Assembly (NCBI GenBank): GCA_037441385.1 | Contig: JBBISH010000011.1 | Coordinates: forward strand, 22,830 to 86,829 | From: Myxococcales bacterium | Lineage (GTDB): Bacteria; Myxococcota_A; UBA9042 | Direction of reading: 5' to 3' | Length of the DNA: 64,000 nt | Shown: positions 9,620 through 34,512 of the stretch, one piece after another | How the letters are laid out: every line of letters begins with the position of its first letter | Numbering within the stretch: position 1 is the stretch's first letter | Made by a program: the position numbers and the translations under genes | The notes under the pieces: model-generated | The model's database searches: none | The model's input: the letters and a program-made list of their open reading frames with translations, nothing else | What the model was told of the DNA's origin: nothing

Positions 9620-12600
9620 CTAATCCTTGCGGTTTTCCGGCACCGGCTGGATGTCGCCGCACTGTCCGTCGCTCATGCACGGCTTCAGTTCAGGCCAAAC
9701 CTTGCCGCCCGAGCCCAGGTACAGGCCGATGGCGTGCATGACCATCGCGCCGTGGTCAAAGAACGATTGCTTGTCGCAGGTAGCCGGGTCCTGCCCTGCC
9801 TTGCCTGCCGCCGACTTGCACCGGGCGCGCAGGGCGTCGACCTGCTCGCCAGGGTTCCAGAATCCGTGCTTGCCCTCTGGTTCCACGTACGGAAAGAAGG
9901 TGCCCGACTGGCCGCCGGCCTGGTCCGGACCGATCGCGTGCGTGTGCAGCGGCGGGCTTAGGCGCGGCACCGGCCAACCATCCTTGCCCTCGGGTGCCGG
10001 CGCGGCGAGCTGCACCTTTTGGCCTTGCGGCGGCAGACTGGACTGACCGGCCGCCACCGGCGTGGCGCTCTGCGACAGGTCTTCCACATCGAACAGGAGG
10101 CCATTGCCCGAGCCATCCAGAAAGCGCGGAATCTTGTCCACCGCTTCTAGCACGTAGGTATCGATGACGGTTTGGTTGACCGTTCGGCCGCCCCATTCGG
10201 CGATCTTCTTCTTCCAGTCCAACAGACCCGCCGCGCGGCCGATGGCCGCCCCGGTATTGACCGGCACGTTCATGTCGCCAATGGTGTTCAACACGATCGC
10301 GTGAGTCCCCATGTCCGCGTCAAAGAAGTGCGAGGCCCACACCGCCGGGTCGGCCGGATCCAGGACCATCTGGGCAAAGCCAAAGAATTTTCGTAGTTCT
10401 GGCCGCGCTCGGTGCAAGCCCAGGCCTTCCGCTAACGGCGCCAGGGCCTCGCCCGCCTTGAATTGCAGCGGTGCCGAGCGGTAGTGGAAGGCAATGTCGT
10501 GGGTGAACTGGTCGACCACAAAGAGTTTCTTGGCGTCCAGCTTGACCGCGCAGGCCTTGTGCTTGAGCCGATCGACTTGGCCCGACACGAACGCATCGCC
10601 CTTGTAGAACGTCAGCAGGTGCCGTTGCGGCGGCACGGTGATGTCCGAAGCGAGGCCGACGCGAAACGCGAGGCAGCGCGCGGTGCACACTTGCTTGTCC
10701 GCGACCGCGGCATCGGCCGTGCAGGTGGCCAAACAGCCCTTGTCCACAAACAGGCGGGCGCAGTCGTACTCGAAATTGCTGACATTGTCGGCGCGCACGC
10801 TGTCACCGGCGGCCAACTGGCCCCACAGCTCGGCGGGCACGCTCGCGACTTCTTTGTCGTACGTGTCGTTGAGCGACGGCACGATGGTGTGGATGCTCAT
10901 CGTCGACGTCGCCGGGTTGGGCGTGCTCACGTACAGCGGCCCCATCAAGCGCAGCTGCACCGACTCGCGCACACCGCCCTGGATCGACCGCACGCCCACG
11001 TCGATCAAACCGCCGCCGCCCGAAACCGGAACCACGGCGCTGATCTCGGTCTCTACGCCGCCCATCACGGCGCTCATGATGCCGCCCAGCGAGCCGCCCA
11101 TCATGAAGATCGGCATCGTCGGCCCGCCCACGTCGACCACGCCGTCGCCGTCGGTGTCGCCGGCCAGGTCGTCCAACTTGCCGTTGCCGTTCAGATCCAC
11201 CGGCCACACCGTCTTGCCGTCAAAGGCGCGCAAGATCCGCACCAACTGCATGTAGTCCACGGCGGTCTGGCGCACCACGTCGCGGGTGTGGAAGGTATAG
11301 GCAGTCCAGAAGTCGGCGCCCGAGTCGGCTAGACCGTCCAAGTCCTGATCCCAGTTGCGATTGCTGGTCAGCGCTTTGGCCAGGTTCAGCAGGCCAAAAC
11401 CACCAAAGACGTTGGTCAGCAGCGCGCTGTCTTGCTTGCCCAGGGTGAAGCCGTGGCTCACGTTGTCGATGGCGATGGTGATAAAGCCCATGCGCGCCAA
11501 GTACGGGCCAAAGCTGAAGGCTTCGGTCTTGTTGCCCGTATAGCCGTGGCCCAGGATCACGATGCCGCGCGGCTTGCCGTCGGGCGTGGCCTCCTTGCGC
11601 GGGGTCATCGCCCAAAACGTCACGGTCTCGCTGCGGTCCTTGGCCTTCTTGCTCGCCACGTCGGGCGGCCAGCTCATGTCGTTGTAGCCCAGGTAGTGGC
11701 CGTCTTTGTCTTGGCGGTCGAACAGTTGCGGGCTTTGGTAGGTGCCAAAGAAGTGCACGCCCACGTACTTGAGCGCCTCGCCAAAACGCTTGGACTGTTC
11801 CGGCCCGCCCGTGCCGACCAAACCACCCGCGATGATGAGCTGGGCGACTTGCTGGAACGACTCGCCAGAGAGCGTGTACTTCGTCTCGAATTTTGGATGC
11901 TTGGGGTCGTTGTCGAACAACGGCAGCAGTTCGCCGAGTTGGGGCGGGTAGGCCTCGTGCAGGTGCTTTTGCGCGCCGGTGCCATACAAACCCTGGCGAA
12001 CTGCACGCAGGTCGGCCTCAATGCTGCCCGTGGTGAACGACCAGGCAAAGGCGATGTCGCCCAGACCCAGGCCACCAAAGTCCTTGCCGTGACTAGCTAA
12101 AATCCCTTCCAAGGGCCGCAGCGCCTCGGTCTGCTGGAGGTGGTGGATGTATAGGCCCGGCGATCCCACGGGCTTGCCCTGCAGGTCCAGCACCCGCCGC
12201 GTCACCAGCACGGCGTAGGTGGTGCGCTCGCGCAGCGGAACCAAGGGCCGCAACAGAAGCGTATTGGTCTCGCGCTCGTAGAACGTCATCAGCGCGTCGG
12301 CGCGCTCGGCCAGGTTCATCTCGCCGGGCTTCTTGGTGACGCCGGGCAAGTAGTTGGGCTTGTCCAGTACACCGTCCAGGTCGTCGTCTTCGCCCGGGTC
12401 CAGCGCGCCATTGCCATTGGCGTCCTCGTCGTGCTCTTCAAACGACAGTGTCAGGCTGTCGCCGCGCGCGTCGCCCCGCCAATAGCCGCCGATTTGCTCC
12501 AGTACTTGCGGGAAGTTGCCGTTGCCCACGTCCAGCTCGCGCGGCTGGCCAAAGGTAGGCGACCCCTCTGTGATATCGACCAGATAGACCGCGTCATCGG

Positions 12601-12970
12601 CAAAGGCGTAGTCGTCGCCGTGGTGCCGCAGCATGAGCGACTTGGGATCGATGGGCCCGTCGAACGGCACGCTGATCGGCGAATACGTGCCCCAACCGTC
12701 CAGCTGATCGACCAGCTGACGCGTCCGACTTTCCATGTTAGTGTCGGCCAGTTGCGAAGCATTGATGCGCCGCAGCGTGGGCGAACTGGCGTCGTAGCGC
12801 GTCGCCAGGTCGTTCGGCAGCGGAATTTCTGGCAGCGGCTTGGCGTCAAAATCGATCTTGACGTGGACGCTGGCGGCGCCGGCTTTGGCCAAGCCCTCGG
12901 GCTCGCTCTGACAAGCGCTCGCCGCCAGAACTAGCCACAAGTGCGCGAACCATCTTGAGTGCCTCTGCAT
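9620..12970 (-). CDS. Large lipoprotein with an Ig-like N-terminus and alpha/beta-hydrolase (lipase-like) domain
   Basis: Lipobox-like ASAC; 'P.PNDL', 'ILGHGYTG', nucleophile elbow 'GGSLGG', candidate catalytic 'GDMNVP' and 'KHGF'; DxNxNG/DxDGDG Ca-binding motifs; GGGAGG RBS. Confidence 0.75.
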   Translation of the reverse strand: MQRHSRWFAHLWLVLAASACQSEPEGLAKAGAASVHVKIDFDAKPLPEIPLPNDLATRYDASSPTLRRINASQLADTNMESRTRQLVDQLDGWGTYSPISVPFDGPIDPKSLMLRHHGDDYAFADDAVYLVDITEGSPTFGQPRELDVGNGNFPQVLEQIGGYWRGDARGDSLTLSFEEHDEDANGNGALDPGEDDDLDGVLDKPNYLPGVTKKPGEMNLAERADALMTFYERETNTLLLRPLVPLRERTTYAVLVTRRVLDLQGKPVGSPGLYIHHLQQTEALRPLEGILASHGKDFGGLGLGDIAFAWSFTTGSIEADLRAVRQGLYGTGAQKHLHEAYPPQLGELLPLFDNDPKHPKFETKYTLSGESFQQVAQLIIAGGLVGTGGPEQSKRFGEALKYVGVHFFGTYQSPQLFDRQDKDGHYLGYNDMSWPPDVASKKAKDRSETVTFWAMTPRKEATPDGKPRGIVILGHGYTGNKTEAFSFGPYLARMGFITIAIDNVSHGFTLGKQDSALLTNVFGGFGLLNLAKALTSNRNWDQDLDGLADSGADFWTAYTFHTRDVVRQTAVDYMQLVRILRAFDGKTVWPVDLNGNGKLDDLAGDTDGDGVVDVGGPTMPIFMMGGSLGGIMSAVMGGVETEISAVVPVSGGGGLIDVGVRSIQGGVRESVQLRLMGPLYVSTPNPATSTMSIHTIVPSLNDTYDKEVASVPAELWGQLAAGDSVRADNVSNFEYDCARLFVDKGCLATCTADAAVADKQVCTARCLAFRVGLASDITVPPQRHLLTFYKGDAFVSGQVDRLKHKACAVKLDAKKLFVVDQFTHDIAFHYRSAPLQFKAGEALAPLAEGLGLHRARPELRKFFGFAQMVLDPADPAVWASHFFDADMGTHAIVLNTIGDMNVPVNTGAAIGRAAGLLDWKKKIAEWGGRTVNQTVIDTYVLEAVDKIPRFLDGSGNGLLFDVEDLSQSATPVAAGQSSLPPQGQKVQLAAPAPEGKDGWPVPRLSPPLHTHAIGPDQAGGQSGTFFPYVEPEGKHGFWNPGEQVDALRARCKSAAGKAGQDPATCDKQSFFDHGAMVMHAIGLYLGSGGKVWPELKPCMSDGQCGDIQPVPENRKD

Positions 12971-12985
12971 GGTCCCTCCCGCAGG

Positions 12986-14674
12986 CTACGGCGCCTCGCG
13001 GCCCAGCCAAGCCAGCGTAACTCGCCCAGCTGGAATCGGTTCGTTCAGGCCTGCCAGCGCGCCGCCGGGGATCAGCACGCCCGCCTCAGCACAGAGGAGC
13101 AGGTGGGCCGGATAGTGCGGCACCGGCATGCGCCAACGCACGCCCGCGTCCAACTCGGCGCCCAGCAGCGAGCCCGTGGCAGCGTTGCCCAAGAAGTTGC
13201 GAGGAGAACCGCCACCTTCGCTGACCGTCCAGCGCGGGTCCGCGAGCGGCACCGACGTCCACGCCAGCAAAGCGCCGCCGTAGACCTCGCCGCGCTCCAA
13301 GAAGGTGTGGCCTACTTTGGGGAACACGACCCAGCTATTGGTCACCGCGCCGCCGGTCGCCAATCGATCCAGGTCCTCGGGCGGCTGGCCGACCAAGTTG
13401 GGGTCCGAGGCCGAGAGCCTCGCCCGTCCGGTCTGCCACGCAAGGACCCGCGGAAACAGCACGATGCCCAGCTGCGCGTTTGGGTCGGCCTTGAACGCCG
13501 TCACCTTGCCGTCGCCCAAGTTGGCATCGCCCGAGAGCCAAGCCAGGTCCAGCTGCGTGCGCAACCCAGGAGTCAGCTCGGCCGACGCCCGCAGCAGCGC
13601 AGCGCCTTGCAGCACGTCGTGCTTGGGGAAGTCGGGGCTGGGCGCCAACGTGGTCGTGCCCGCGATCAAAGCGGCCTCGCCCTGCAGGCGAATCGCGTGC
13701 AACGGCGTGGGCAGGCGCAAATCGAAGGCGCCGTCGACCAGACTGACGTCCAGGCCGCGCCCAGAGGCCGCGGTCTGACTCCTCCCGGCATAGTACAGGC
13801 CAAGCCACTCGTCCGACGCCACGTACCAGCGCACCGAGCCAACGACTTGATTGGCCGTGTCGCCGTCCAGCAGGACATCGTCGGCAAACACGCGGTCGAC
13901 CGCGAGCGACACCGCCAGGCCGCGCAAGACCGAAGACGTGTTGCGGAAAGGGGTCAAGACCAGCGCGCCGCGGACCACGCGGTCGCCGACCCGCGGCACA
14001 TAGAACCACTGCTTGTCCATGCCCTGGACTCGGCCATCGCGTGCGACCAAGCCATTGCCCCACGACGAGCCCATCAGGCCGCCGCGCACCTCCGCAATTT
14101 GATTCCAGTTCGCCCCGATCCAAGCTTCGGTTGGCTCTAGCTTGCCCTCGCGACTGGCCGGCAAGCGATCCCCGGGCAGCGGGGTCAGACCGCCCCAACC
14201 GCCGCTCAGCAGTTCGCCGCCCAGCGCGCCGCGCACGACCAAGCGGCCCAGCCAGCGGCCAGTCTGACCGCCCACGCCAAAGTGCAGGCGACCATCCAAG
14301 TCCGCATTCGCCGGCGATTTCGTGCCTGTGCGGTCGACCATGAACTGGCCCATTTGGGTAGCGGTGGCCAGGATCGCAACGTCGGGGTGCCAGCTGGGCC
14401 GATTGGCAGCTTCGCGCATGGCCAGGGCCATGACGCCGGGCGGCGTGGCGATCCGCTCCATAGTAGGCGTGGCCGATTCTGCTGGAGGCACAGCGGGTTT
14501 GCTGGCAGGCCCCTCGGCTGGCGTGGCGGCAGCGGGCGTATCGACCGCATCGGCCCAGGCTGGCCCCGTTCCGGCCAGCGCCAGCACCGCCCAACCCAAC
14601 AAGGTCAAGCGCGGCAGGAGCACGCCCGGCCGGGCCCAACTCCCAGCGCCCCAGGGCGTTCGCGTGCGAGACAT
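12986..14674 (-). CDS. Putative outer-membrane beta-barrel protein
   Basis: Signal peptide, Pro/Ala linker, alternating beta-strand pattern ('LLGAELDAGVRW'), AAAGGA RBS; 15 bp upstream of the hydrolase gene. Confidence 0.65.
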   Translation of the reverse strand: MSRTRTPWGAGSWARPGVLLPRLTLLGWAVLALAGTGPAWADAVDTPAAATPAEGPASKPAVPPAESATPTMERIATPPGVMALAMREAANRPSWHPDVAILATATQMGQFMVDRTGTKSPANADLDGRLHFGVGGQTGRWLGRLVVRGALGGELLSGGWGGLTPLPGDRLPASREGKLEPTEAWIGANWNQIAEVRGGLMGSSWGNGLVARDGRVQGMDKQWFYVPRVGDRVVRGALVLTPFRNTSSVLRGLAVSLAVDRVFADDVLLDGDTANQVVGSVRWYVASDEWLGLYYAGRSQTAASGRGLDVSLVDGAFDLRLPTPLHAIRLQGEAALIAGTTTLAPSPDFPKHDVLQGAALLRASAELTPGLRTQLDLAWLSGDANLGDGKVTAFKADPNAQLGIVLFPRVLAWQTGRARLSASDPNLVGQPPEDLDRLATGGAVTNSWVVFPKVGHTFLERGEVYGGALLAWTSVPLADPRWTVSEGGGSPRNFLGNAATGSLLGAELDAGVRWRMPVPHYPAHLLLCAEAGVLIPGGALAGLNEPIPAGRVTLAWLGREAP

Positions 14675-14881
14675 GGCGTCCTTTGGCGGCTCCAGGGGCC
14701 GCGGCGACAACGGGTGCCGTGGCGGCAACGTACGCAGATCGGCGCCAGAGCGTCAAGGGGCCGGCAGCGGTCGCAGGTCCAGAGACTTGTGCTGCGTAGT
14801 CTGGCGCGGGCATCGCAAAACGGCCGCCCCGCCCACCTGCCGCAGCAGGCCGACGAGGGCCGCAAACCCTTGTGCGTGCGA

Positions 14882-17872
14882 CTACTTCACGGTCGCCATC
14901 GCCGCCTTGGTGGCGTTGATGGTCTCGCTGAAGAAGGTCGGGTTGTGTAGGCCGCCGCTCTTGTCGTTGTTCAGCAGTTGCATGTTCCAGATGCCCTTGA
15001 ACACGGTGGTGCCCGCGCCGATGACCGCGGTGTTCTTGCCGGCCACGGGCGTCTGCAGCGCCGTCCACGACACGCCGAACTGGGTCACGCTGGTGGTGGT
15101 GTTGTCCGTCCAGGTGATCGAGATGGCCTTGGGCATGGTGAACCACAGGAAGAACGAGGTGCCCACGTACTTGGCCTCGATGCTGGTCGGCACGTCGGTC
15201 AGCTCCACGTTGTAGGTGGTGCTGGAGCTGGACGAATACAGGCCGTTGCCGTTGTTCGCCCGCACGAGCACCTTGCCGTTGGCGGCAATCGCCTGGCTGG
15301 TCAGCACCTTGGCGGCGGCGCCGATGCTCTGGCCCATCTCGGTCATCTGCATGGCGATCACGCCCTTGAGCGCCTTGCCGTCCACGTTGGCGGCGTGGCA
15401 CGAAGCGCAGACTTTCTCGTCTGGCTTGAAGCTGTGGTTGCCGGTCTCGTTGGCCGCGGCTTGCGCCTCGGTCGGGATTTTGACGTGGCAGGCCGCGCAA
15501 GTATCGGTGACCGCCAAGTGCTTGCTGGGCGTGTAGCGCGGCATGAAGTAGGCGTTGAAGCCGTACAGCACGTCAGTCTGCGCCGGGGCGTGCGGGCCCG
15601 AGGTCGAGGTCGTCGCGGCGACAAAGTCGGTGTGCTCGCCGTTGCGGGTGTTGTGGCAGGCCATGCAGGTCAGGCCGGTGCCGGCGCCGGTGATGCCGGT
15701 CATGCCGTTGGGCAGCGCGGCCACGCTGTCGTACAGACGGACTTGCGCCGGGTGATCCGCGGCGTGCGGGTCGTGGCAGGTCTGGCAGGTCTGCGGCTCC
15801 ACGGTCGAGCGCTGCAGGCCGGCCGCGCGCAGGTAGGCTTCGTCGGCGGGCGAGCCGTCGGGCTTGACGATCAGGCCAGCGTTGCCTTTGTCGAGCTGAT
15901 CGGCGTACAGGACGAAGCCTTGCGCGGCGTGGCAGCGGCCACAGTGGGCGGCGTTGGCGCCACTGGCTTCAAACGTGCCGCGGTCGGCCAGGGCCGGGTT
16001 GGCGTGACCGCTGGTCTGCCACTGCGCGGGCTTGTAGTGATGCGGGCCTTCCTGGTGGCACTGCGCGCAGACCGCCGTGCTCATCGACACGCGCGCAAAG
16101 TGCAGGTCGTTGACCACGGCCGCGTTCTTGCCCATGCCCGACGACGAGTGCCCTTGCGAATTGTTGGGGCCGTGGCAGTTCTCGCACTGCACGCCCGCGA
16201 GCTTGCCCAGGTCCGGGTGATCTTTCTGCAGCGCATCCCAGGTGCCGGCGGCGGGCTTGAAGACCCAGCCGTTGTTCTTCTGCACGTCGTCAAAGCCGCC
16301 GTTGTCCACAAACGGCGAGTAGCCTACTGTGTGGCATTCGATGCAGCCCTGGCCAAAGAACGCGCCGCCCTTGACGCCGTTGAACTTGTCGATGCTGCCC
16401 AGCAGGTGGTTGGTCTTGGCCCACGCGCCAAATGGATCCGGGGCCACGGTGTTGTTGTGGCACGCCTTGCAGACGTCCTGGCCGTTGTACATGCCGGCCC
16501 AGCTGCCCGCGTAGATGGTCAGCGTCATCTTGGCGACCGTCTCGGTGAGCACGTAAGCGCCCTTGGCGTCAGGGGTAAAGTGCGGGAACTGCGTGGTAGC
16601 GTCGACCAGCTTGGCGGTCGAGCCGCTGGCGCCACTGCTGTCCAACGTCCAGTTCCAGCTGGTCACGGTGGCGTCGCCCTGCAGGTACACGGGCAGGCCC
16701 AAGGTCACGTTGCGCAGTCCGGCGCCGGGCGCGGCCGACATGACCGTCACGTTGGCCGTGCTGCTGTGGCCCTGCGGGTCCTTGACGGTCAGGCTGAAGG
16801 TGTAGTGACCAGCGTCGTCCGGCGAGATGCCCACCACGCCAAAGCGGATCGGCGTGGCAAAGGTCTTCGAGTTCGGCAGCGACAACGTCTTGAAGGTCAG
16901 CGTGTTGCTGGTGGGGTTGGTCAGGGTCACGGGCAGGCCGCCGGTCTGGGTCCACTGATAGCTCAGCTTGGCCACGTCGCTGTCGGCGTCGGTCACCGTC
17001 GCCTTCAGAGCCACGTTGGCGTCGTAGCCCGCCAGCAGATCGCTCGCCACCACGATGGTCGGTGCGCCGCCACTCTTGCTGTCGGCCGTCAGGGCCGCGC
17101 CCACGTTGGTCGTGTTCAGCGCCACAACGCCCACGTTGTTGATCTGGGCGGTGGCGTAGCCGGCCAGGCTCACCGTCAGCTGGTAGGCACCGATCGGCAC
17201 GCCGGTCAGCGTGAAGGTGCCATCAGCGCCCGACTTGACCTGCAGACTCAACGGGTTGCTGGTCACCAGCGCGCCAACCAGGGCCGAGCCGTCGGCCGCC
17301 GCCGTCACCTTGCCGCTGATGGTGCCCTTGGCCGAGGCTGGGTCGCCGCTGTCGCCCTTGGGGCCTTGGGCGCCGTCTTTGCCGTTCACGCCGTCTTTGC
17401 CGTCTTGCACGGTCGCGGTCGGCGAGCCTGGGCAGTTGATGGTCTTGGTGCCGGCGCCGTCGTCGGCCACGGTGCAGGGCGCGCCGTCTTTGCCGTTCTT
17501 GCCGTCGTATACGGTGACTGTGCTGCCGTCAGGGCAGGTGATGGTCTTGCTGCCGTTGGCGTTGGCGGCCACCGTGCAGTTCTTGCCGTCCAAACCGGCC
17601 TTGCCGGCGGGCAACGTCACGGTGGTGCCGTCTTCGCAGGCGATGGTGGCGCTGCCGTCGGTATTCGCCTTGACCGCGCACGACTTGCCGTTGGCGCCGG
17701 GGGCACCGTTGGCCCCGTTCGTCCCGTTCTGCCCGGCCGCGCCCGTCGCGCCGATCGGCCCGGTTGCTTCACAGCCGGCCAACGAAAGCAGGGCTGCGAA
17801 CGCCCCGACGAGCACCCTGCCAAAGACAGGGGTGGCCATGCCCGTTTGGTTCCACTTGATTGCGTTCATCAC
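14882..17872 (-). CDS. Nine-heme c-type cytochrome lipoprotein with collagen-like, carboxypeptidase-regulatory-like and PKD-like N-terminal domains
   Basis: Lipobox LAGC; G-X-Y triplets; three 'C.V......TI.C' repeats; 9 CxxCH motifs in the C-terminal half; C-terminal 'GLHNP'. Confidence 0.9.
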   Translation of the reverse strand: MMNAIKWNQTGMATPVFGRVLVGAFAALLSLAGCEATGPIGATGAAGQNGTNGANGAPGANGKSCAVKANTDGSATIACEDGTTVTLPAGKAGLDGKNCTVAANANGSKTITCPDGSTVTVYDGKNGKDGAPCTVADDGAGTKTINCPGSPTATVQDGKDGVNGKDGAQGPKGDSGDPASAKGTISGKVTAAADGSALVGALVTSNPLSLQVKSGADGTFTLTGVPIGAYQLTVSLAGYATAQINNVGVVALNTTNVGAALTADSKSGGAPTIVVASDLLAGYDANVALKATVTDADSDVAKLSYQWTQTGGLPVTLTNPTSNTLTFKTLSLPNSKTFATPIRFGVVGISPDDAGHYTFSLTVKDPQGHSSTANVTVMSAAPGAGLRNVTLGLPVYLQGDATVTSWNWTLDSSGASGSTAKLVDATTQFPHFTPDAKGAYVLTETVAKMTLTIYAGSWAGMYNGQDVCKACHNNTVAPDPFGAWAKTNHLLGSIDKFNGVKGGAFFGQGCIECHTVGYSPFVDNGGFDDVQKNNGWVFKPAAGTWDALQKDHPDLGKLAGVQCENCHGPNNSQGHSSSGMGKNAAVVNDLHFARVSMSTAVCAQCHQEGPHHYKPAQWQTSGHANPALADRGTFEASGANAAHCGRCHAAQGFVLYADQLDKGNAGLIVKPDGSPADEAYLRAAGLQRSTVEPQTCQTCHDPHAADHPAQVRLYDSVAALPNGMTGITGAGTGLTCMACHNTRNGEHTDFVAATTSTSGPHAPAQTDVLYGFNAYFMPRYTPSKHLAVTDTCAACHVKIPTEAQAAANETGNHSFKPDEKVCASCHAANVDGKALKGVIAMQMTEMGQSIGAAAKVLTSQAIAANGKVLVRANNGNGLYSSSSSTTYNVELTDVPTSIEAKYVGTSFFLWFTMPKAISITWTDNTTTSVTQFGVSWTALQTPVAGKNTAVIGAGTTVFKGIWNMQLLNNDKSGGLHNPTFFSETINATKAAMATVK

Positions 17873-17992: not shown

Positions 17993-19156
17993 CTACGTGT
18001 GGCACGGCGTGCACGCCGGTGCCGTCTTGGGATCTTGCTTGCTCGACCAGCCCGGCGGGTGCGGGTTGCCGCCCGGCTCGCCGACTTTGTGGCACTTGAC
18101 GCAGTTGCTGGCGGCGCCGCGGTCGTGGCAGGCCGCACAGGCCGTGATGTCTTGGCGCGCGGCCCGACCGTGGTTGTCCACACCGCCGCGGTCCATCCAC
18201 CCGGCTGGGTGCGGGCTGGGGCCGCCGCCGGCTACGGGCTGCGAAAGGCCCATGCGTTCGTGGCACTTGACGCATGTCTGCGGCGCGTGGCAAGTCTGGC
18301 AACCCTTGCTGTCCAGCTTGGCTTCCATCGAGTGGCGGCTCATGTAGTCGCCGCGGTGGTGGAACGACGCGTCAACCCGGTCGGCATGCAGCAAGTCTGG
18401 GCGGATCGCGTTGTTCTTGCTGTGGCACTCGGCGCAGCTAGTGTCTTGGTGGCAGTGGCCGCAGACCTTGCTCTGGCCCTTGGCGACGACGCCGTGGCGG
18501 CGCAACCAGTCCGCGCCGTGGTCGAAGTCGCGCACCGGCTTGTCCTGCATGGATTTCAGACCCTTGTGGCAGGTGTAGCAGTTCTCGGTGCGGAAATCGC
18601 GGCTGTGGCAGCTGGTGCAGGCGACCAGCATGTTGGGGCGCATGTCTTCAGACACCTTACCGTGCTTGCGGATGTCGCCGTGGCAGCGCACGCAGGTGTC
18701 TTTGTCGCCGGCCTTTTGCACGCGGTCCAGGTGGTTCTTGTGGCTGAAGTTGACGTCAAAGGTGCGGCGCGTGTCGACGAACGTGGTGGGCATGCTGGGG
18801 TTGGCGTGGCACTTGTCGCAGCCGCCCTCGGCTTTGTCGTGGCAGTCCATGCACTTGGCTTCGGTGGGGATCTCGCGCTTCTTGCTAAGGTCTTCCGAGG
18901 CGGCAATGCCGTCGTGGCAGTCGGCGCAGGCCAGGCCCTGGCAGGCGCCCGTGTCGCCCTTGGCGTTGGGCAGGCAGTCGGCGTCTTCGGCGGCGGCGAC
19001 GTGCCAATTGTGCGAGAACTTGACGTTGTCGCGCACGTTGCGCTCCGGTGCGCTGCCGCCCCACGAGCCGAGCAGCCAGGCGCAGGCAGGTAGCGTTGCC
19101 GCCATCGCCAGTACCAGCGCGAGCCGGAGCAGTGCGGATCCTTGCAAGGATTTCAT
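17993..19156 (-). CDS. 13-heme c-type cytochrome (two c7/c3-like triheme domains plus paired CxxCH)
   Basis: 13 CxxCH counted; two 'FSH..H' motifs; signal/lipoprotein peptide (LPAC); ATGA overlap with the barrel gene. Confidence 0.93.
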   Translation of the reverse strand: MKSLQGSALLRLALVLAMAATLPACAWLLGSWGGSAPERNVRDNVKFSHNWHVAAAEDADCLPNAKGDTGACQGLACADCHDGIAASEDLSKKREIPTEAKCMDCHDKAEGGCDKCHANPSMPTTFVDTRRTFDVNFSHKNHLDRVQKAGDKDTCVRCHGDIRKHGKVSEDMRPNMLVACTSCHSRDFRTENCYTCHKGLKSMQDKPVRDFDHGADWLRRHGVVAKGQSKVCGHCHQDTSCAECHSKNNAIRPDLLHADRVDASFHHRGDYMSRHSMEAKLDSKGCQTCHAPQTCVKCHERMGLSQPVAGGGPSPHPAGWMDRGGVDNHGRAARQDITACAACHDRGAASNCVKCHKVGEPGGNPHPPGWSSKQDPKTAPACTPCHT

Positions 19157-20658
19157 GGATTTCCTCCGGCGGGCTTGGCGTCGTCGGCTTTCTCGGGCGC
19201 TTTGTCGGGGGCCTTCTCGGCGGGCTTGTTCGGGGCTTTCTCGGCCGGCTTGCCGTCGCCCTCGTCGTCCTTCTTCTCTTCGGCCTTCTTCTCGTCGGCC
19301 TTTTTCTCTGGCGGGGCTGCGACTTCGGTAGCACCCGCGCCCGAGACCAGGGCAGCCGGAATCGGGCGGGGAGCCATCAACATGCCCTCGTTGACGGTCA
19401 AGGTCAGCAGCCCCAGGGCCTGCGCGTCAAAGTACGGGTTGCGCCAAATCTGGGCGTCCACGCCAGCGTCTAGCCCGCGAATCACGGCATAGCGGGCCGA
19501 GGCGCCGCCGCGGACCGAGAACGTCTCGCCGTGCACCGCCCGCATGAAGGCGTAGCAGTCGATGTCAGCCGCCACGGTCAGGCGGTCCATGGGCTTGCCG
19601 CTGCCAAAGATGCGCACTTGGTCGTAGCCGTTGTCGCCATTGAACAAGCGCGCGTACTGCACGCCGGCCCGGTAGCGCCCCGCGGGGTCGATCTTGACGC
19701 GGCCTTCCACGAAGGCGCGGTAACCGTCTGCCACGCCATCGTTTTTCACAAAGCGGTCGTAGCCGCCCGCCACGGTCAGCGCGCCGGGGGTGATCAAGTC
19801 AAAGCTGCCGCCGACCATGCCGTCGGTCCGCTGCAAGAACGCCTGGAAGATCGACGTCTTGCTCATCCACGCCAAGGGGTCGCGCAACTCGGCCTTGGTG
19901 TGCACGATCAAGAAGTCCTTGACCTTGTAGTTCAAGTCCAACCGCGCCTGCTGCAAGCGGTTCTCTAGCAGGTCCTGCGCGTAGAAGGCCACCAGCGTCA
20001 GCGGGTCCAACATGCGCAGCGACCCGTCGATCGACAGCGACCGGCGGTTGGTGTAGTCCACCTTGGCGTTCGCACCGGGCACGTCGTCGATGGCCTGCAG
20101 GCCCACGCCGACATGGCCGAGTTCCCAGGGCGTCCACGCGACGCGAGCGCCGTAAGTGGGCGCCTTGAAGACATTGTCAAAGTTCTCGTACACACCCGTG
20201 CCAAAGTAACCGTCGACGCGGACGGCCTTGGGCAGGTGCATGATCAGCGAGGCGCCGTCCATGTACTGGTACTGGGCGCCGCCCGTGAATACGGCGATAC
20301 GGCCAATCTGGAAGCGGATTTCGTCCTTCTTGGCCGCCCAGCCCAAGTTGCCAAGCATCAGATCCGCGCCGTGCCCCGCAGGGCCGCTCGCGAACTGCTG
20401 CTGCAAGTAGCCGTAGGCCGAAGCAAAGATGCCCGTGCCGCCCGCGTTGGTGGCGTCAAAGGACAGCAGCGCCAAGCCTGGGACGCTCGTATCGGTCGCG
20501 GGGGTCGTACCGGGACGCAACTGCCCGGTGAACAAGCCGATCGCCTTCAAGCTGGCGTGGATGTCGCCCGTTTCGGCAGCTTGCGCGGCCAGCGCGGTCC
20601 CGCCAAGGGCCAGCGCCAGTGCCGCAGTCAAAAACCGCTTGGGGAATCTGCAGTTCAT
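19153..20658 (-). CDS. Outer-membrane beta-barrel (porin of a porin-cytochrome conduit)
   Basis: ATG 20658 overlaps the upstream stop (ATGA); Sec signal ending AQA; amphipathic beta strands with aromatic residues; K/E/P/A-rich tail; flanked by multiheme genes. Confidence 0.75.
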   Translation of the reverse strand: MNCRFPKRFLTAALALALGGTALAAQAAETGDIHASLKAIGLFTGQLRPGTTPATDTSVPGLALLSFDATNAGGTGIFASAYGYLQQQFASGPAGHGADLMLGNLGWAAKKDEIRFQIGRIAVFTGGAQYQYMDGASLIMHLPKAVRVDGYFGTGVYENFDNVFKAPTYGARVAWTPWELGHVGVGLQAIDDVPGANAKVDYTNRRSLSIDGSLRMLDPLTLVAFYAQDLLENRLQQARLDLNYKVKDFLIVHTKAELRDPLAWMSKTSIFQAFLQRTDGMVGGSFDLITPGALTVAGGYDRFVKNDGVADGYRAFVEGRVKIDPAGRYRAGVQYARLFNGDNGYDQVRIFGSGKPMDRLTVAADIDCYAFMRAVHGETFSVRGGASARYAVIRGLDAGVDAQIWRNPYFDAQALGLLTLTVNEGMLMAPRPIPAALVSGAGATEVAAPPEKKADEKKAEEKKDDEGDGKPAEKAPNKPAEKAPDKAPEKADDAKPAGGNP

Positions 20659-23363
20659 GGGTCCACCCATCCGTTGATGTGGTAGCCGTCCTTGAGGTTC
20701 AAGGTGCCGTCCGCGTTGACCGTCTTGGAGTGGCAGGCGGCGCAGGCCTTGGTGGTGCTGCTGCCCACGTAGGGGTGACCCGCCAGAACCGACGGCGGCA
20801 GGCCGTGGCAGTCGCCGCAAGTCACGCTGCCTGCTGCGGTCCACGTCACGGTGGGCTTGGCGGCACTGTCTTGGGTAGCGCCGTGGCAGTAGGTCTGCGA
20901 GCAGGTTTGCTTGACCGGGTCGTAGGTCGGCTTGGAGCCAAAGTACTTGGCCAAACCGCCGGGGAACACGATGGTGCTGAGGCCGGCAAAGTGCCCGGGC
21001 TCGTCCACCGTCTTGGGCAGCTTGTGGCACTCTTCGCAGGCCATGCCGCCGCCGCTGAACTGCTTGCCGTTCAAGTGGGCCGCGTGGGCGCCGACCATGG
21101 GCGAGGTGGGGACGCTATTGCCGGCGGTGTCCGGGGCCGGCGCGCCCTTGCTCTGCTCGGTCCCGTGGCAGGCGTAGCAGTTGCTGGGGTAGGCCGTGTC
21201 CACTTTGCCATTGTAGTGGAGGCCGCCGGCCAAGATGTTCTTGGTCGAATCCACACTGGTCGCGTGGCACTTGCTGCAATCCTTGACGGTTTGCGGGTGG
21301 GCGTCGCCGCTGGCGATGGTCTTGGGGGGCTCTTGGTGGCACTGGTTGCAGGTGCCGGCGCCGATGGCGAACTCGACCTTGCCGTCGTAGTGCGATCCGC
21401 CGCTGACCACATGCATGTCCGCGTCGATACTGGCGGCGTGGCAGGCGCTGCACTGGCCGGCCTGCGGGTGCGGCTTGCCAGCGGCGGTGGTCTTGGGCGG
21501 TAGCGCGTGGCAACCCGTGCACGAGGTGGGCGCGGTGGCGACGACGACCTCGACCGTGCCATCCATGTGCTTGCCACCACTGATGATCTCTTTGCTGCCC
21601 TTGACCGAGGCCGAGTGGCAGTCGCCGCAGACGGTCGAGGTCGGGTGCGCCTTGCCGGTGGCCGCGATGACTTTGGGCGGCGCGGCGTGGCAGCCGCTGC
21701 AGCTGGTGGGGTTGGCGGCGAGCTGCACTTCGACCTTGCCGTCCATGTGGCTGCCGCCGCTGATGATCTTCTTGTCCGCGTCCACAGTGCCGGCGTGGCA
21801 GTCGTTGCACACCGCCTGCTGCGGGTGGGCCTTGCCGGTGGCGGCGATGACCTTGGGCGGCGCGGCGTGGCAGCCTTCGCACGACGTGGGCACGGGCGCC
21901 AGCTGCACTTCGACCTTGCCGTTCATGTGGCTGCCGCCAGCGACGAGCGTGTTGTCGGCCGCGACCGTGCTGGCATGGCAGTCGTTGCATTGGCTCTGCT
22001 GCGGGTGCGGTTTGCCGGTGGCGGCGATGGTGACCGGCGGCGCCAGGTGGCATCCGTCGCAGGCGGTGGGCTTGGCCGCGATTTGCACTTGGACCTTGCC
22101 GTCCATGTGGGTGCCGCCCTCTACGATGGCCTTATCCGCGGTGACCGAGCTGGCGTGGCAGTCGTTGCATTGGTTTTGCTGCGGGTGTGGCTTGCCCGTG
22201 GCCGCGATCACGACCGGCGGCGCCAGATGACAGCCGTCGCACGAGGTCGGCTTGGCCGCCAACTTGACGTCGACCTTGTCGTTCATGTGCGTGCCGCCAG
22301 CGATCAGCGCGTGCGAGGCGTCCACGGTCGACGCGTGGCAGTCATTGCACTGGCTCTTTTGGGGGTGCGGCTTCTTGTCCTTGCCGGCGACCAGCGGCGG
22401 GGCACCGTGGCAGCCGTTGCAGCTGTTGCCGGCGGGCAGCAGGGCTACTTCCACCTTGCCGTTCATGTGCGTGCCGCCCGCGATCAGGTCGCGCGTGCCC
22501 TTGACGGTGGTGGCGTGGCAGTCGCCACAGTTGGCCGCGACCGCTGGGTGCTTGTCGGTGAACGGCGGCGCGCCGTGGCAACTGGCGCAGTTCACGTTGT
22601 TGGCCAGCACCACGTCCACCTTGCCGTTGATGTGCATGGCGCGGTCGGTGACGACCATCTTGGCGCCCATGGTGGCGGCGTGGCAGGTTTCGCAGTTGGT
22701 GTCTTTGGGGTGCGGGGCGGGCGGCGGCGCACCGTGGCACGAGTCGCAGCCGCGCTGGCTGCCGTCCACTTTGGTCCACAGCGGCTTGCTGTCCTTGCCG
22801 GGCGCCTTCAGCGTCGCGCCGTGGCAGTAGCTGTTGCTGCAGGTGTTGCTGGCCGCGTCGTAGGTCGGAGTCGCGCCACCCGCCAAGGCCAAGCCGCCAA
22901 AAGTCACGGTGGCTTTCTCGTCCGGGGCGTCCAAGTGGCCGGTTTGATACTTGCTCGTCGGCACGATATGGCAGGTCTGGCAGGGAATTGGTGTGTGAAC
23001 CGGCCCGTAGCCCAGGTGCTGCTGGTGGGCACCCACGCCGGCGTCGGTCGTCGCGGTCTGCCCTTTGAGCCCGCGCGGTGGGGCGGCGTTGTTGGTGGTG
23101 CCGTGGCAGGCGGCGCAATCGGCGGTCTTCAGCACTTCGTCTGCAGTCGGCGCGGGCGTCTTGGCGACCGGGGTCACGGCGACCCGCGCGGTGTCGCAAC
23201 CGCTGGCCCACACCAGGGCCGAGGCCAAAAGCGCCAAGCCGATTGGCAAGCGCCTGGCGGCGGTCGGGTCGGCGCCGCGGCGACGCGGACTCTCGATGTG
23301 CAGACGGTGGGGATGCGGACTGTCGGGATGCGGACTGTCTGCGCACAGGTTGACCTTGCCCAT
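20655..23363 (-). CDS. 26-heme c-type cytochrome lipoprotein (CxxxxCH/CxxCH domain family)
   Basis: 24 CxxCH plus 2 CxxxxCH (CSNSYCH, CSQTYCH); lipobox-like ASGC; GAGG RBS. Confidence 0.93.
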   Translation of the reverse strand: MGKVNLCADSPHPDSPHPHRLHIESPRRRGADPTAARRLPIGLALLASALVWASGCDTARVAVTPVAKTPAPTADEVLKTADCAACHGTTNNAAPPRGLKGQTATTDAGVGAHQQHLGYGPVHTPIPCQTCHIVPTSKYQTGHLDAPDEKATVTFGGLALAGGATPTYDAASNTCSNSYCHGATLKAPGKDSKPLWTKVDGSQRGCDSCHGAPPPAPHPKDTNCETCHAATMGAKMVVTDRAMHINGKVDVVLANNVNCASCHGAPPFTDKHPAVAANCGDCHATTVKGTRDLIAGGTHMNGKVEVALLPAGNSCNGCHGAPPLVAGKDKKPHPQKSQCNDCHASTVDASHALIAGGTHMNDKVDVKLAAKPTSCDGCHLAPPVVIAATGKPHPQQNQCNDCHASSVTADKAIVEGGTHMDGKVQVQIAAKPTACDGCHLAPPVTIAATGKPHPQQSQCNDCHASTVAADNTLVAGGSHMNGKVEVQLAPVPTSCEGCHAAPPKVIAATGKAHPQQAVCNDCHAGTVDADKKIISGGSHMDGKVEVQLAANPTSCSGCHAAPPKVIAATGKAHPTSTVCGDCHSASVKGSKEIISGGKHMDGTVEVVVATAPTSCTGCHALPPKTTAAGKPHPQAGQCSACHAASIDADMHVVSGGSHYDGKVEFAIGAGTCNQCHQEPPKTIASGDAHPQTVKDCSKCHATSVDSTKNILAGGLHYNGKVDTAYPSNCYACHGTEQSKGAPAPDTAGNSVPTSPMVGAHAAHLNGKQFSGGGMACEECHKLPKTVDEPGHFAGLSTIVFPGGLAKYFGSKPTYDPVKQTCSQTYCHGATQDSAAKPTVTWTAAGSVTCGDCHGLPPSVLAGHPYVGSSTTKACAACHSKTVNADGTLNLKDGYHINGWVDP
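21541..22620. repeat. Intragenic 180-bp tandem repeats encoding 60-aa diheme modules
   Basis: Near-identical sequence recurs at 21721, 21901, 22081, 22261 and 22441 (for example 'cttcgaccttgccgtccatgtggctgccgcc'); more diverged copies lie on both sides. Confidence 0.9.
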
Positions 23364-23438: not shown

Positions 23439-24183
23439 GTTGGGCAGGACGGCAAGGCCCGTTCTGCAAGGGTTTCGTCACAGCTTCGCAAGCCAACCAT
23501 GGGCGACAATTCCATGACCATTCACGGCCCTGTTGCCTTGGGACCGTTGTCGCCAACCCTCGCAGTCGCCAAAGTCGCTCGGCGTACCAGCGCGGCCTAC
23601 TGCCGCGGATCGCGGCCGTCGCTTGGCCTGTCTGCGCTCCCGTCGGATGGCGTCAGCTGTTGGGTAGACCATCGCGGGCGCGAGACTGCGAACGCCACAG
23701 ACGAAATTGCCGCCTGTGGCCCAGTCTGTCTGCGATTTTGAGCGGCGGCAGTCGTGCAGAGCGCGGCGAGTGCAGAGCGCGGCCAGTTGGTACCAAGTTT
23801 GTCACCGGCTCCTTCCACGACGATTTCACTTTTGATATGGAGTGTCCCAATCGGAGCCATGCGCTCCAACGCACCCAGGCCCAGGCGCAAACCGTGCCGA
23901 TGGACCGGGCACTTCTAAACCTGCGCGTGCTGCCTCGGCACCTCAAGGGCCGCCCAAGCCGGCCCATCCGGGGCGACGCGTACGGCGCACCGCAAGACCA
24001 AGTCCGCCGGCCTCCGCCACGAGCGGGCCGGCGTGCAGGGGGAGGTTGCCGGCTGGATCGAGGGGTCAGCCGGCACCTCCAACCCCTGTGCCGCGCCGAT
24101 TTCGACGGCCCGGATGCGCGGAGAAAGTCTAAACTGATCCGCTCCCTAGAGCGTCCTACCCTCCGGCCCAAATCGGCGCAGGT

Positions 24184-32334: not shown

Positions 32335-32520
32335 TTTCACAACTTGCACTGCATCGCGCCGGACTCGCCCGCGGCATGGGCGGCCTGCCGATCAAGGGCA
32401 AACTTCGCAACAAAATGATTGCGAATCGGCGTTGCTTACTGGCGGCGGCCGCGCTAGGGTGCATGCCGGTCGTGCGTCGACCGCTCCCAACTTCGCGGCT
32501 TGGCCGCTCCAGGTGAATGC

Positions 32521-34512
32521 ATGCGTTCTCTCTTCAATAATGCCGCTTTGCGGGCATTGGCGGTCCCGACCGCGCTGGCGGCCCTGAGCTGCGGGCCGAT
32601 CGGCTGCGGCACGACTCCATCCAATGGCGGCGGAGGCACCACCGTGACCACCGACGCGGCGGGCGGCGACCTGGGCACCAAGACCGACACCGCCGCCGAC
32701 ACCGCCGCCGACACCGGCGCCGACACCGGCGCCGACTCCAGCGCAGTGGTCACCCCGGTGGTCAATCTGATCGTCGACTCCAACCGCGATGGCATTGCGA
32801 AGCCGGGCGACAAGGACGACGAAGACTTCGAGACCGCGTTCGACGACAAGCACGGCGCGTCGTTCTTGCCCAATTTGGACGACGACAACAGCAACAAGAA
32901 AGAAGATTTCTACGACGAGGCCATCCCCGACGACAAGGCAGCCCAAGACCTGGCGCCGATCTTGGTCCAGGCCTGGAAAGACGTGCCAGACGGCGCCACG
33001 GCCAAGCTGACCGTGGAACCGGCCGACAAGGCGCGCATTTGGGCCAAGCTCAGCGACGGCACCTGGGGCTGGCTGGCCGGCGCCCAAGGCGTTTGCGACG
33101 GCGTGGGCGAGTGCAACGGCGTGGGCGAAGTGCAGTTCCCGCTCGACCTGCTCAAGAGCGGCGCCGAGTTGGGCTTGGAAGGTCGGCAGTTCCGCATGTC
33201 GGCGAGCGACAAGGACACCGACCCGCTGTTCTGGGACGGCCAGGTGACGGTGTCGCTGACGGTCTACGACAAGGCGGGCATGCCCTACAACAACGCACCG
33301 GGCACGGACAAGGGCACGGACAAGGTGCTGCTGCGCGTCGCGCCGTGGCTGCAAAACGGCAACTTGTCCGAGTTCGACAAGTGGACGTCGCTCAGCTGGG
33401 GCAATCAAGCCGACGCGGCGACGTTCAACGCCGACCTGGACAAGGCCCAGCAAGCCGTAGGCAGCAAGGTAACCTACGATAAGTACACCTATTACAGCGA
33501 TCAGTGGACCCAAGACTGGTACCAGACGGGCACCGTGCAGATCCCCGGCCCCAATGGCACGGTCCACGGCATGCGCGTCTACAACGCGCGCCCCTACAGC
33601 AACGGCCCCAAGACGCTGCCGATCACCATCTTGAAGTCCAAGTTCATGGGCCCGGACCGCATTGCCATCAAGATCTACAAGAAAGACAACTTTGGCACGT
33701 CGTTCGACTCGCACGGCAACCACGACCTGCTCCCCGCCTACACCAACGGCAAGGACAGCTACCCGCTGAGTCGCATCCTGACCGGTTCGGGCGCCCTGCC
33801 CGAGACGATGGACTTCTACGCCGCCCAGCGCGTGCAGGGGCCACCGGTCGTGGTCGACACCACTTGGTTGGCGGTGGGCCACTGCGACGAGATCCTGAGC
33901 TACGCGCCCGCCAAGACCGCACGCGGCTGGAAGCTGCTGTATGCCAACGACAAGATGGCGATCGACATGTTCACGCAGCTGCAGAAGGACGGCAACGGCA
34001 AGATCGAGGTGTTCTCGGGCCGCGACGTCGAGCGCAAGGGCAAGGCCGTGACCACGCAGCCGACGATTGACTCGGTGATGGCCGATGTGGATCTGCTCAC
34101 CTCGTCTCAGGGCGCCCACGTCAAGACGGATGCGGCCGTGGAGTTGGTCAAGGGTGTGGTCGGTCTGACCGAGGACGAACTGGTGCCGATTCCGTTCCTG
34201 ACCGAGGACTGGAGCAAGAACGAGATGATCGCCTGGCAGCCCGGCACCGTGAACTCGATGATTGTTTACGATCACATCATGGCGCCGAACACCTATGGCC
34301 CGATCGTGAACGGCGCCGATGTGTTCGCCAAGGACCTGCAAGACCGCCTGGGCACCGACAAGCTGGGCTTGGGCAGCGATGGCAAGGGCATGAAGGTTCA
34401 CCTGATCGACGACTGGTACGGCTACCACTTGCTCATGGGCGAAGTGCACTGCGGGACCAACCCCGAGATGCCGCCGTCGCCCAAACTGACCTGGTGGAAG
34501 GTCGTTCACTAA
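32521..34512 (+). CDS. Protein-arginine deiminase (PAD) family lipoprotein
   Basis: 'LRVAPW', 'DQWTQD', 'DSHGN', 'WLAVGHCDE', 'GEVHCGTN'; N-terminal signal peptide with Cys and a DTAA linker. Confidence 0.92.
   Translation: MRSLFNNAALRALAVPTALAALSCGPIGCGTTPSNGGGGTTVTTDAAGGDLGTKTDTAADTAADTGADTGADSSAVVTPVVNLIVDSNRDGIAKPGDKDDEDFETAFDDKHGASFLPNLDDDNSNKKEDFYDEAIPDDKAAQDLAPILVQAWKDVPDGATAKLTVEPADKARIWAKLSDGTWGWLAGAQGVCDGVGECNGVGEVQFPLDLLKSGAELGLEGRQFRMSASDKDTDPLFWDGQVTVSLTVYDKAGMPYNNAPGTDKGTDKVLLRVAPWLQNGNLSEFDKWTSLSWGNQADAATFNADLDKAQQAVGSKVTYDKYTYYSDQWTQDWYQTGTVQIPGPNGTVHGMRVYNARPYSNGPKTLPITILKSKFMGPDRIAIKIYKKDNFGTSFDSHGNHDLLPAYTNGKDSYPLSRILTGSGALPETMDFYAAQRVQGPPVVVDTTWLAVGHCDEILSYAPAKTARGWKLLYANDKMAIDMFTQLQKDGNGKIEVFSGRDVERKGKAVTTQPTIDSVMADVDLLTSSQGAHVKTDAAVELVKGVVGLTEDELVPIPFLTEDWSKNEMIAWQPGTVNSMIVYDHIMAPNTYGPIVNGADVFAKDLQDRLGTDKLGLGSDGKGMKVHLIDDWYGYHLLMGEVHCGTNPEMPPSPKLTWWKVVH
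32684..32736 (+). repeat. Intragenic 12-bp tandem repeat (DTAA/DTGA linker, about 4 copies)
   Basis: ccgacaccgccg / ccgacaccggcg units. Confidence 0.8.

Follow-up and report, generated by a model that had tools for sequence, protein, structure and literature searches.

Organization of the locus

The window analyzed here is a 64,000-nucleotide stretch of the genome of an uncultured Myxococcales bacterium (contig JBBISH010000011.1 of assembly GCA_037441385.1), and all positions without another contig or locus name refer to it. Its reverse strand contains a 902-residue-long open reading frame with 26 c-type heme motifs, followed by the genes of a porin-like protein and a 13-heme cytochrome. The 26 motifs are distributed over two terminal pentaheme units and eight diheme modules positioned between them. 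The 26-heme protein is probably a lipoprotein that forms the outward-facing wire of an outer-membrane porin–cytochrome conduit, with its length set in each lineage by the number of modules. The genome of the window is designated G000 and that of its sister species G007; G005, G006, G009, G043, and G054 are other relatives used in the comparisons. The cytochrome gene has the following parts:

20655–23363, reverse strand: open reading frame of the 26-heme c-type cytochrome (5 + 8 × 2 + 5 heme motifs), 902 aa, identified by motif count and the TIGR01904 and PF09698 profiles
23196–23363, reverse strand: leader ending in lipobox-like ASG-C56, a pattern match; the true start codon may be downstream of the first ATG
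22617–23117, reverse strand: N-terminal pentaheme unit with CxxCH, CxxCH, CxxxxCH, then a diheme; conserved spare histidines 113, 116, 143, 218, and 244
21201–22589, reverse strand: eight diheme modules, each CxxCH..PP..HP..CxxCH..HxN/DGxV, delimited by repeat and alignment analysis
22589–22452, reverse strand: module M1
22421–22272, reverse strand: module M2
22241–22092, reverse strand: module M3
22061–21912, reverse strand: module M4
21881–21732, reverse strand: module M5
21701–21552, reverse strand: module M6
21521–21375, reverse strand: module M7
21350–21201, reverse strand: module M8
20658–21179, reverse strand: C-terminal pentaheme unit; spare histidines 760, 763, 791, 863, and 895

Heme motifs and histidines of the 26-heme cytochrome

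The reading frame encodes 24 CxxCH and two CxxxxCH motifs; shuffling of the 902-residue protein yields a mean of 0.21 CxxCH motifs and a maximum of three (10,000 shuffles). The motifs of the N-terminal unit are at residues 83, 128, 175 (CSNSYCH), 206 (CDSCH), and 224, and those of the C-terminal unit at residues 729, 776, 821 (CSQTYCH), 849 (CGDCH), and 874. The two units can be aligned over 181 columns with 36% identity (E = 4e-24). An earlier interpretation made from the DNA letters alone, here called the sequence-only reading, described a 5-heme unit, eight diheme modules, and a second 5-heme unit homologous to the first, and the 26 located motifs bear out this layout.

The modules start at residues 259, 315, 375, 435, 495, 555, 615, and 672, and the starts of M2 to M7 are spaced exactly 60 residues (180 base pairs) apart. 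Tandem Repeats Finder detects a period of 180 with 3.8 copies and 78% matches at 21615–22303. The exact 180-base-pair period that the sequence-only reading assigned to the central copies is therefore real; however, the high identity that it ascribed to them was overstated, because the copies are 58–81% identical over the period and the longest exact repeat measures 23 base pairs.

It is hardly conceivable that the array is an assembly artifact produced by the collapse or inflation of a repeat. No single Logan contig spans the array, and the three pieces that cover the gene overlap by 28 and 13 bases, which would be compatible with such an origin. However, these three contigs of run X1 contain 0 differing letters (run X1 may be the source of the window), and the gene has no exact repeat of 31 or more bases. 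With a longest exact repeat of 23 base pairs, the array would not collapse in an assembly using longer words. The separately assembled genomes G007 and G005 carry the same 5 + 8 × 2 + 5 layout. Four variant joints detected in run X1 have sides of at most 28 bases and were set aside as probably belonging to other organisms. Runs X2 and X3 cover the gene too thinly to show variants, and no RNA data set was listed as containing it.

There are 29 histidines outside the heme motifs after Cys56, and 26 of them occupy matching positions, five in each terminal unit and two in each module, which corresponds to one per heme. The remaining His123, His351, and His651 are extras. Every module has one histidine in an HP motif and a second in H-x-N/D-G, in agreement with the two spare histidines per module noticed in the sequence-only reading. 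When 188 dihemes of 20 proteins are aligned, both histidine columns are full; in two of the 188, the second histidine motif escaped a stricter regular expression, although the histidine itself is present in both. The mature chain contains 32.6 residues per heme, and this was counted in favor of a wire because it equals the value of approximately 33 given for the wire-like MtrA in PMC5566968.

A lipobox-like cysteine precedes the first heme by 14–36 residues in 21 of 23 homologs, according to a pattern match, and the other two lack the N-terminus. The leader of the 26-heme protein is unusually long and contains a 15-base-pair tandem repeat (2.7 copies, 23299–23339) encoding DSPHP; a similar stretch is present in G007.

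Membership in the GSu_C4xC__C2xCH family

The cytochrome matches TIGR01904 (GSu_C4xC__C2xCH) with 98.7 bits relative to a cut-off of 27, and PF09698 with 36.3 bits relative to 21.7. The matches above the curated cut-offs cover two stretches, one for each terminal unit. Both terminal units have the order CxxxxCH then CxxCH, and the eight inner modules are devoid of CxxxxCH. The inner modules are evidently copies of the diheme half of a TIGR01904-type unit. Homologs are annotated as “CxxxxCH/CxxCH domain c-type cytochrome”, and the Atlas neighbors are Myxococcota clusters with PF09698. Whereas the terminal units resemble the family closely enough to pass its cut-off, typical long members of the family repeat the whole pentaheme unit; by contrast, the diheme sub-unit alone is amplified here. 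Ten of 145 further 50%-representatives have a run of at least three dihemes, and one has a run of more than four. The TIGR04257 profile of tandem c7 trihemes (GSU1996 type) is absent from the 26-heme protein, whose repeat is a diheme, and scores below its cut-off on the 13-heme partner (20.6 versus 40), and the broad PF14522 model scores on one stretch of the 26-heme protein. The lipobox, the known domain family, and the porin–cytochrome operon had no place in the sequence-only reading.

Repeats of the whole pentaheme unit reach extreme lengths in the proteins P0034, P0039, P0041, and P0042, which contain 151, 126, 91, and 94 heme motifs per chain, respectively; P0034 is 5264 residues long. 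The genome of the window itself encodes a pentaheme-repeat paralog with a long acidic tether (contig C10, 70753–80622, forward strand, locus L059), a 3290-residue-long open frame with 50 CxxCH and 16 CxxxxCH motifs, and two more paralogs on contigs C168 and C13.

Predicted structure of the diheme modules

The structure of residues 490–902 has been predicted, without hemes, by AlphaFold from a 137-row alignment, with a mean predicted local distance difference test score (pLDDT) of 70.9 and a predicted template modeling score (pTM) of 0.46. Four modules have pLDDT values of about 70–90 and consist of repeating short helices and beta-bridges, and much of the C-terminal unit has values of 46–64. 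The confidence there is low because the C-terminal unit is backed by approximately 16 of the 137 alignment rows, with 45 pentaheme-repeat fragments placed in module columns. The model fits beads with uncertain relative angles. A single-sequence AlphaFold prediction of the mature chain was beta-rich with a mean pLDDT of 39.5 and was discarded.

The 413-residue heme-free model has no Foldseek match at E ≤ 0.001 and no VIA-align match at Z ≥ 2 among 48,161 chains, and such a result from a model of this kind falls short of proof of a new fold. The same searches give no fold match, and sequence searches no match, to the solved subunits of polymerizing nanowires of the OmcS, OmcE, and OmcZ type. A phmmer search of the Protein Data Bank (PDB) with the cytochrome gives no match, PDB profile matches merely track the CxxCH spacing, and PDB sequence searches with the barrel profile and the 13-heme partner give nothing meaningful. 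The 12-heme protein GSU1996 is approximately 12 nm long. A predicted chain of 27 hemes is given a length of 350 Å in PMC11492766, which puts the periplasm at 170 Å. By analogy with both chains, the array would span 20–35 nm if extended.

Flexible diheme beads could also constitute an electron store (capacitor) or redox sponge, in which additional modules add capacity rather than reach and end-to-end conduction is not selected. The low pTM fits flexible joints, the module number drifts by one between species (pairs with 87% and 81% identity of terminal units), and storage has been proposed for long multiheme cytochromes (PMC11492766, PMC10734462). However, such a role is quite improbable: the linkers are short and conserved in length, with about 10 residues from the second histidine motif to the next CxxCH; all 35 tabulated homologs, a set selected for both CxxxxCH motifs, have pentaheme caps at both ends; and the gene is coupled to the barrel gene.

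Module number among homologs and history of the array

The 35 complete homologs, 33 of which are distinct in their terminal units, comprise family relatives and database homologs. They contain 0 (one protein), 2 (two), 3 (three), 4 (two), 5 (one), 6 (two), 7 (one), 8 (eleven), 9 (four), or 13 modules (eight). The comparison of homologs suggested by the sequence-only reading thus gives a number that is not invariant. Both CxxxxCH flanks are present in 16 of the 22 family relatives, and the other six are cut by contig ends. All five pairs with at least 90% identity of terminal units have the same module count (two of these pairs are identical sequences), as do 7 of the 12 pairs with 80–90% identity; the closest differing pair, with three and four modules, is 87% identical. 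Ten protein clusters have 66 members, and none of the 60 listed has a module-sized gap or any internal gap longer than seven residues. The module count of the cluster is kept in all 38 members with both flanks, although many of them probably come from repeated assembly of the same populations, and the clustering may shed length variants. Metagenomes contain at least three porin-linked eight-module loci among at least 76 loci, and no new relative of the species of the window is among the matches listed. The module count is fixed within near-identical sequences and differs between lineages.

Each of the eight modules of G000 best matches the module at the same position in G007, and the divergence of the two arrays (synonymous, dS, 0.45; nonsynonymous, dN, 0.07) is similar to that of the terminal units. 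Within G000, comparison of M3–5 with M4–6 gives a dS of 0.60 and a dN of 0.22, whereas M3–6 of G000 and G007 differ by a dS of 0.42 and a dN of 0.07. Because the paralogs exceed the between-species values, the youngest duplications appear to be older than the split of G000 and G007, although the synonymous margin is not large. Therefore, the tandem expansion of the diheme unit put forward in the sequence-only reading stands, but its recent date does not. We infer that the arrays are under purifying selection today. All eight modules are position-orthologous in three of four species pairs, and six of eight in the fourth. The arrays of G000 and G005 have the same count, six of eight modules match by position, and the central modules have different histories, which shows that exchange has taken place inside the genus at a constant count.

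The sequence-only reading also anticipated that recombination would vary the length of the array between strains. A recent expansion of this kind is very improbable. The exact 180-base-pair period agrees with it, the history of the central modules of G005 shows that unequal exchange or conversion has occurred inside the genus, and an unrelated array at the locus L142, described below, indicates that recent expansions do occur in the wider family. However, exact repeats are short, 23 base pairs here and 14–41 base pairs at most in the 18 other porin-linked genes checked, the paralogs are older than the species split, the modules remain positional between sister species, and neither the cluster members nor pairs more than 87% identical differ by a module.

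The eight-module lineages represented by G000, G009, and G006 lack a positional signal when M1–8 are compared (diagonal identity 0.41–0.45, off-diagonal 0.41–0.44, p = 0.11–0.64; p = 0.11–0.86 over all comparisons of these lineages), and module identity is about 0.52 within a protein versus 0.41–0.44 between these lineages. When 46 modules of five proteins are placed on a tree, there are 12 changes of the protein label, compared to 27.9 in shuffles, none of 200 of which is as low. The trees of terminal units and porins separate the three eight-module lineages by relatives with 3, 4, 6, 7, 9, or 13 modules. Their arrays may have reached similar lengths by separate expansions, or each lineage may have homogenized an array of about eight modules inherited from an ancestor; either history would fit.

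The porin tree has a branch (SH-aLRT 94) with the 15 diheme-array loci on one side, adjoining G054 with two pentaheme units and zero modules; the tree was built by a quick method with a midpoint root and includes long branches. Farther out, members of the same barrel family are accompanied by whole pentaheme units, in numbers of one, three, four, five, or seven, which provide 5, 15–16, 20, 26, or 36 hemes. Distant relatives lengthen the same barrel partner by whole pentaheme repeats. Diheme insertion arrives at totals of 16, 26, and 36 hemes, and so does the repetition of whole pentaheme units with one terminal heme (loci L047, L048, L108, L119, L123, L152, and L192). This agreement is a hint that comes from a few related lineages and may be due to chance.

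The locus L142 (977–3472, forward strand) encodes a 29-heme lipoprotein with a triheme head and 13 dihemes of about 47 residues in an alternating pattern. Its array has a period of 94 residues, 87% DNA identity between copies, and a 94-base-pair exact repeat, and the 6.5-kb locus contains no barrel gene. This array expanded separately and more recently, and it is the better candidate for a change of length between strains. On the trees of porins and terminal units, the genus g1 falls into three groups with other genera between them, and the neighbors of the operon vary from locus to locus, a hint that the operon has moved or been replaced.

The predicted porin–cytochrome operon and its neighborhood

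Downstream of the cytochrome gene on the same strand are the following genes:

19153–20658, reverse strand: porin-like gene, 501 aa, with a signal-peptide-like start, a beta-rich body of about 400 aa, and a low-complexity tail
17993–19156, reverse strand: 13-heme cytochrome, 387 aa, with a lipobox-like LPA-C and a c7-type N-terminal part
14882–17872, reverse strand: accessory lipoprotein with nine hemes and the domains CarboxypepD_reg and PKD; it occurs in 8 of the 25 loci examined and is therefore outside the core

The stop codon of the 26-heme cytochrome gene overlaps the ATG of the porin-like gene in an ATGA, and the stop codon of the latter overlaps the ATG of the 13-heme gene in the same way. 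A stop codon overlaps or abuts a start codon in all 16 related loci checked, 13 of which have ATGA. The conserved core over the 25 loci consists of the cytochrome (23 loci), the barrel (23), and the 13-heme partner (20 in the main cluster), and no other member is conserved. The porin-like gene is present in 29 of the 61 genomes searched, G000 included, and in 22 of the 36 genomes of the family; the same 22 genomes, metagenome-assembled genomes (MAGs) of the Myxococcota type, carry both the porin-like gene and the C-terminal unit. The porin-like protein has 19 amphipathic 9-mers, and the closest named Atlas clusters of a homolog with 86% identity are outer-membrane beta-barrels (0.91–0.92). The 501-residue middle gene product is thereby taken to be a porin. 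Prediction of a complex of the barrel, the 13-heme protein, and the N-terminal unit gave a score of 0.00, which, in a run without controls, speaks neither for nor against binding. A promoter and terminator scan of the locus was at chance level.

The genome G000 has four matches to the maturation family PF01578 and 40 open reading frames with at least three CxxCH motifs. The best named relatives, among the matches listed, are mostly titled as uncultured Myxococcales or Myxococcota MAGs. A preprint on boreal lakes describes Myxococcota as richest in novel cytochrome clusters of extracellular electron transfer (10.1101/2022.03.26.485925).

Other features of the neighborhood are as follows. The C-terminal tail of the porin-like protein is a long low-complexity stretch of Lys, Glu, Ala, and Pro (19153–19390, reverse strand) with short DNA repeats at 19167–19308. 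A repeated element of about 60 base pairs, similar to repetitive extragenic palindromes or miniature inverted-repeat transposable elements, is located at 24090–24149 between the cytochrome gene and a glycerol-3-phosphate dehydrogenase-like gene; it has 36 blastn matches in G000, counting itself, some of which are inverted pairs. Downstream on the same strand (9620–14728, reverse strand) are genes for a 580-residue protein without a family match and a 1116-residue lipoprotein with a weak VolA/Pla-1 lipase match, far under the cut-off. A lipoprotein-like protein with a protein-arginine deiminase (PAD) domain (E = 1e-65) is encoded at 32500–34512 on the forward strand. In the zero-module locus of G054 (L045, 2639–6501, forward strand), a 10-heme protein encoded upstream is joined to a cytochrome b561 domain, and a 12-heme cytochrome is present as well. 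This is a possible inner-membrane link that the window lacks.

Comparison with known conduits and wires

Repeat-built cytochromes with variable heme numbers have been described in PCC3 clusters (He et al. 2017, PMC5566968; Hoover et al. 2023, PMC10734462). As in the descriptions of PCC3, by which alone its proteins were compared, the locus combines a porin with two multiheme cytochromes and has repeat-built chains with few residues per heme, predicted to be long and linear in PCC3. The heme number also varies, between 10 and 35 in the extracellular cytochromes of PCC3 in Gallionellaceae and with the module count here. However, the barrel here has about 400 residues and approximately 19 detected strands instead of up to 42, the partner has 12–13 hemes instead of a median of 21, and the host is of the Myxococcota type instead of Proteobacteria. 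The five-helix inner-membrane protein of PCC3 with two WX3HX13H motifs was found in none of the 25 loci with flanks of about 5–10 kb, some of which end at contig edges; seven open reading frames over the 25 loci have a single WX3HX13H motif, and none of them lies in 4001–40000 of the window. Membership in PCC3 is rejected on account of the missing membrane protein and the sizes of the barrel and partner, although the locus is proposed to work like PCC3 or ExtEFG.

The conduit layout and ExtEFG of Geobacter were defined by Otero et al. 2018 (PMC6148476). The lipoprotein with redox cofactors that belongs to this layout has its counterpart here, with a lipobox-like cysteine in all 21 homologs that possess an N-terminus. 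ExtEFG and ExtABCD are described there with an outer-membrane beta protein, a pentaheme lipoprotein, and a 12–15-heme cytochrome, and the shortest relative of the window locus, in G043, has the same inventory: one pentaheme lipoprotein, a barrel, and a 13-heme cytochrome. Compared by description only, the systems differ in gene order, in the partner, which looks lipidated here, and in the extension of the pentaheme protein to 26 hemes. None of the 16 matches to the barrel profile is named as Geobacter.

Single-chain wires have been predicted by Soares et al. 2024 (PMC11492766), who argue that misfolding is limited by modules with internal distal ligands, and the grafting and pruning of modules was described by Soares et al. 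2022 (PMC9250108). Like GSU1996, which consists of tandem c7 trihemes, and the predicted 27-heme wire of Desulfuromonadia (PMC11492766), the 26-heme protein has modules concatenated in one polypeptide. By contrast, its repeat is a diheme of 47–60 residues without a PDB sequence or fold match. The 27-heme wire is described as encoded outside a porin operon (PMC11492766), whereas the 26-heme gene is inside one. No description of the diheme-array family was found in the literature listings and passages searched, and passages of 10.1101/2025.05.29.656830, PMC12977616, PMC2825233, PMC11475568, PMC12307469, and 10.64898/2026.05.27.727921 contained nothing specific; supplements such as those of PMC11492766, PMC5566968, PMC11475568, and 10.1101/2022.03.26.485925 may name such proteins.

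The published wires also include a location that differs from the one proposed here. The 26-heme protein could be a periplasm-facing bridge, attached either to the inner membrane or to the inner leaflet of the outer one, with a module number that tracks the width of the periplasm or how far away an inner-membrane donor lies; the barrel-filling or outer part would then be the 13-heme lipoprotein. Both cytochromes have a lipobox-like cysteine, periplasm-spanning wires of 21–27 hemes have been proposed (PMC11492766, PMC10734462), and eight or nine modules (26–28 hemes) are commonest, in 15 of 35 homologs. However, heme numbers next to this one barrel family run from 5 to 36, a sevenfold range that is hard to match to periplasm width within one class, the pentaheme lipoprotein of extEFG is described as an outer-membrane part (PMC6148476), and no inner-membrane partner is conserved among the 25 loci. 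The bridge is considered unlikely.

Proposed mechanism and significance

In the preferred reading as an outward-facing wire, the 26-heme protein would be exported, receive its hemes from the cytochrome c maturation system, and be held in the membrane by a lipid on Cys56. Each module would enclose two bis-His hemes, ligating them with its own two histidines, so that the gain or loss of modules would cause no misligation. Electrons would cross the barrel by way of the 13-heme partner and reach the pentaheme unit nearest the membrane. The array would carry them onward over about 20–35 nm to the far pentaheme unit and to a donor or acceptor outside the cell, for which humic matter, minerals, and other cells are examples. 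As judged from the trees, an ancestor with two pentaheme units may have duplicated only the diheme sub-unit, and lineages would later have expanded or homogenized their arrays separately, long before the present species split.

Several observations weigh against the outward-facing wire. The pTM leaves the module orientations unfixed. The porin-like protein has no match in Pfam, NCBIfam, or PDB searches, and its Atlas neighbors vary, with only 10–94% of their members carrying a barrel family. Fourteen of the 36 family genomes, some of them more than 90% complete, have no match to the queries used. The lipobox-like cysteine of the 13-heme partner means that the sequence does not fix which of the two cytochromes faces which side of the membrane, and the lack of a conserved inner-membrane link counts here as well as against the periplasmic bridge. 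Furthermore, the module trees are based on 57–59 columns and have many open forks.

Variable-length, repeat-built wires beside porins have already been published for PCC3, and the hosts here are uncultured. What is new, and well supported, is the lengthening of a member of the GSu_C4xC__C2xCH family by its diheme sub-unit, its place in an unnamed porin–cytochrome operon, and the resulting natural length series. The family exhibits two routes to lengthening the same partner, as well as a lineage-wise rebuilding of the heme array.

It is still debated why a single chain should contain dozens of hemes, whether for reach, storage, or bridging of the periplasm, and in most examples proteins that differ in length also differ in family. 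The cytochrome described here, linked to one type of barrel, provides a natural series from 5 to 36 hemes. The conserved caps and the small, apparently self-contained diheme insert of about 55 residues imply that length could be varied alone and that single modules could be expressed. It is a tentative idea, more doubtful than the wire itself, that length is a selected, quantized trait, and that the module is a new self-ligating diheme brick of 47–60 residues without a solved fold, which at least four lineages amplified independently: three have eight or nine modules (26–28 hemes) and one has 13 (36 hemes), with distant relatives reaching 16, 26, and 36 hemes via pentaheme repeats. If this were true, the steps from 5 to 36 hemes within a single barrel family would provide a ruler for relating the length of a conduit to its reach and rate, and the diheme would be a stackable part for designed wires.

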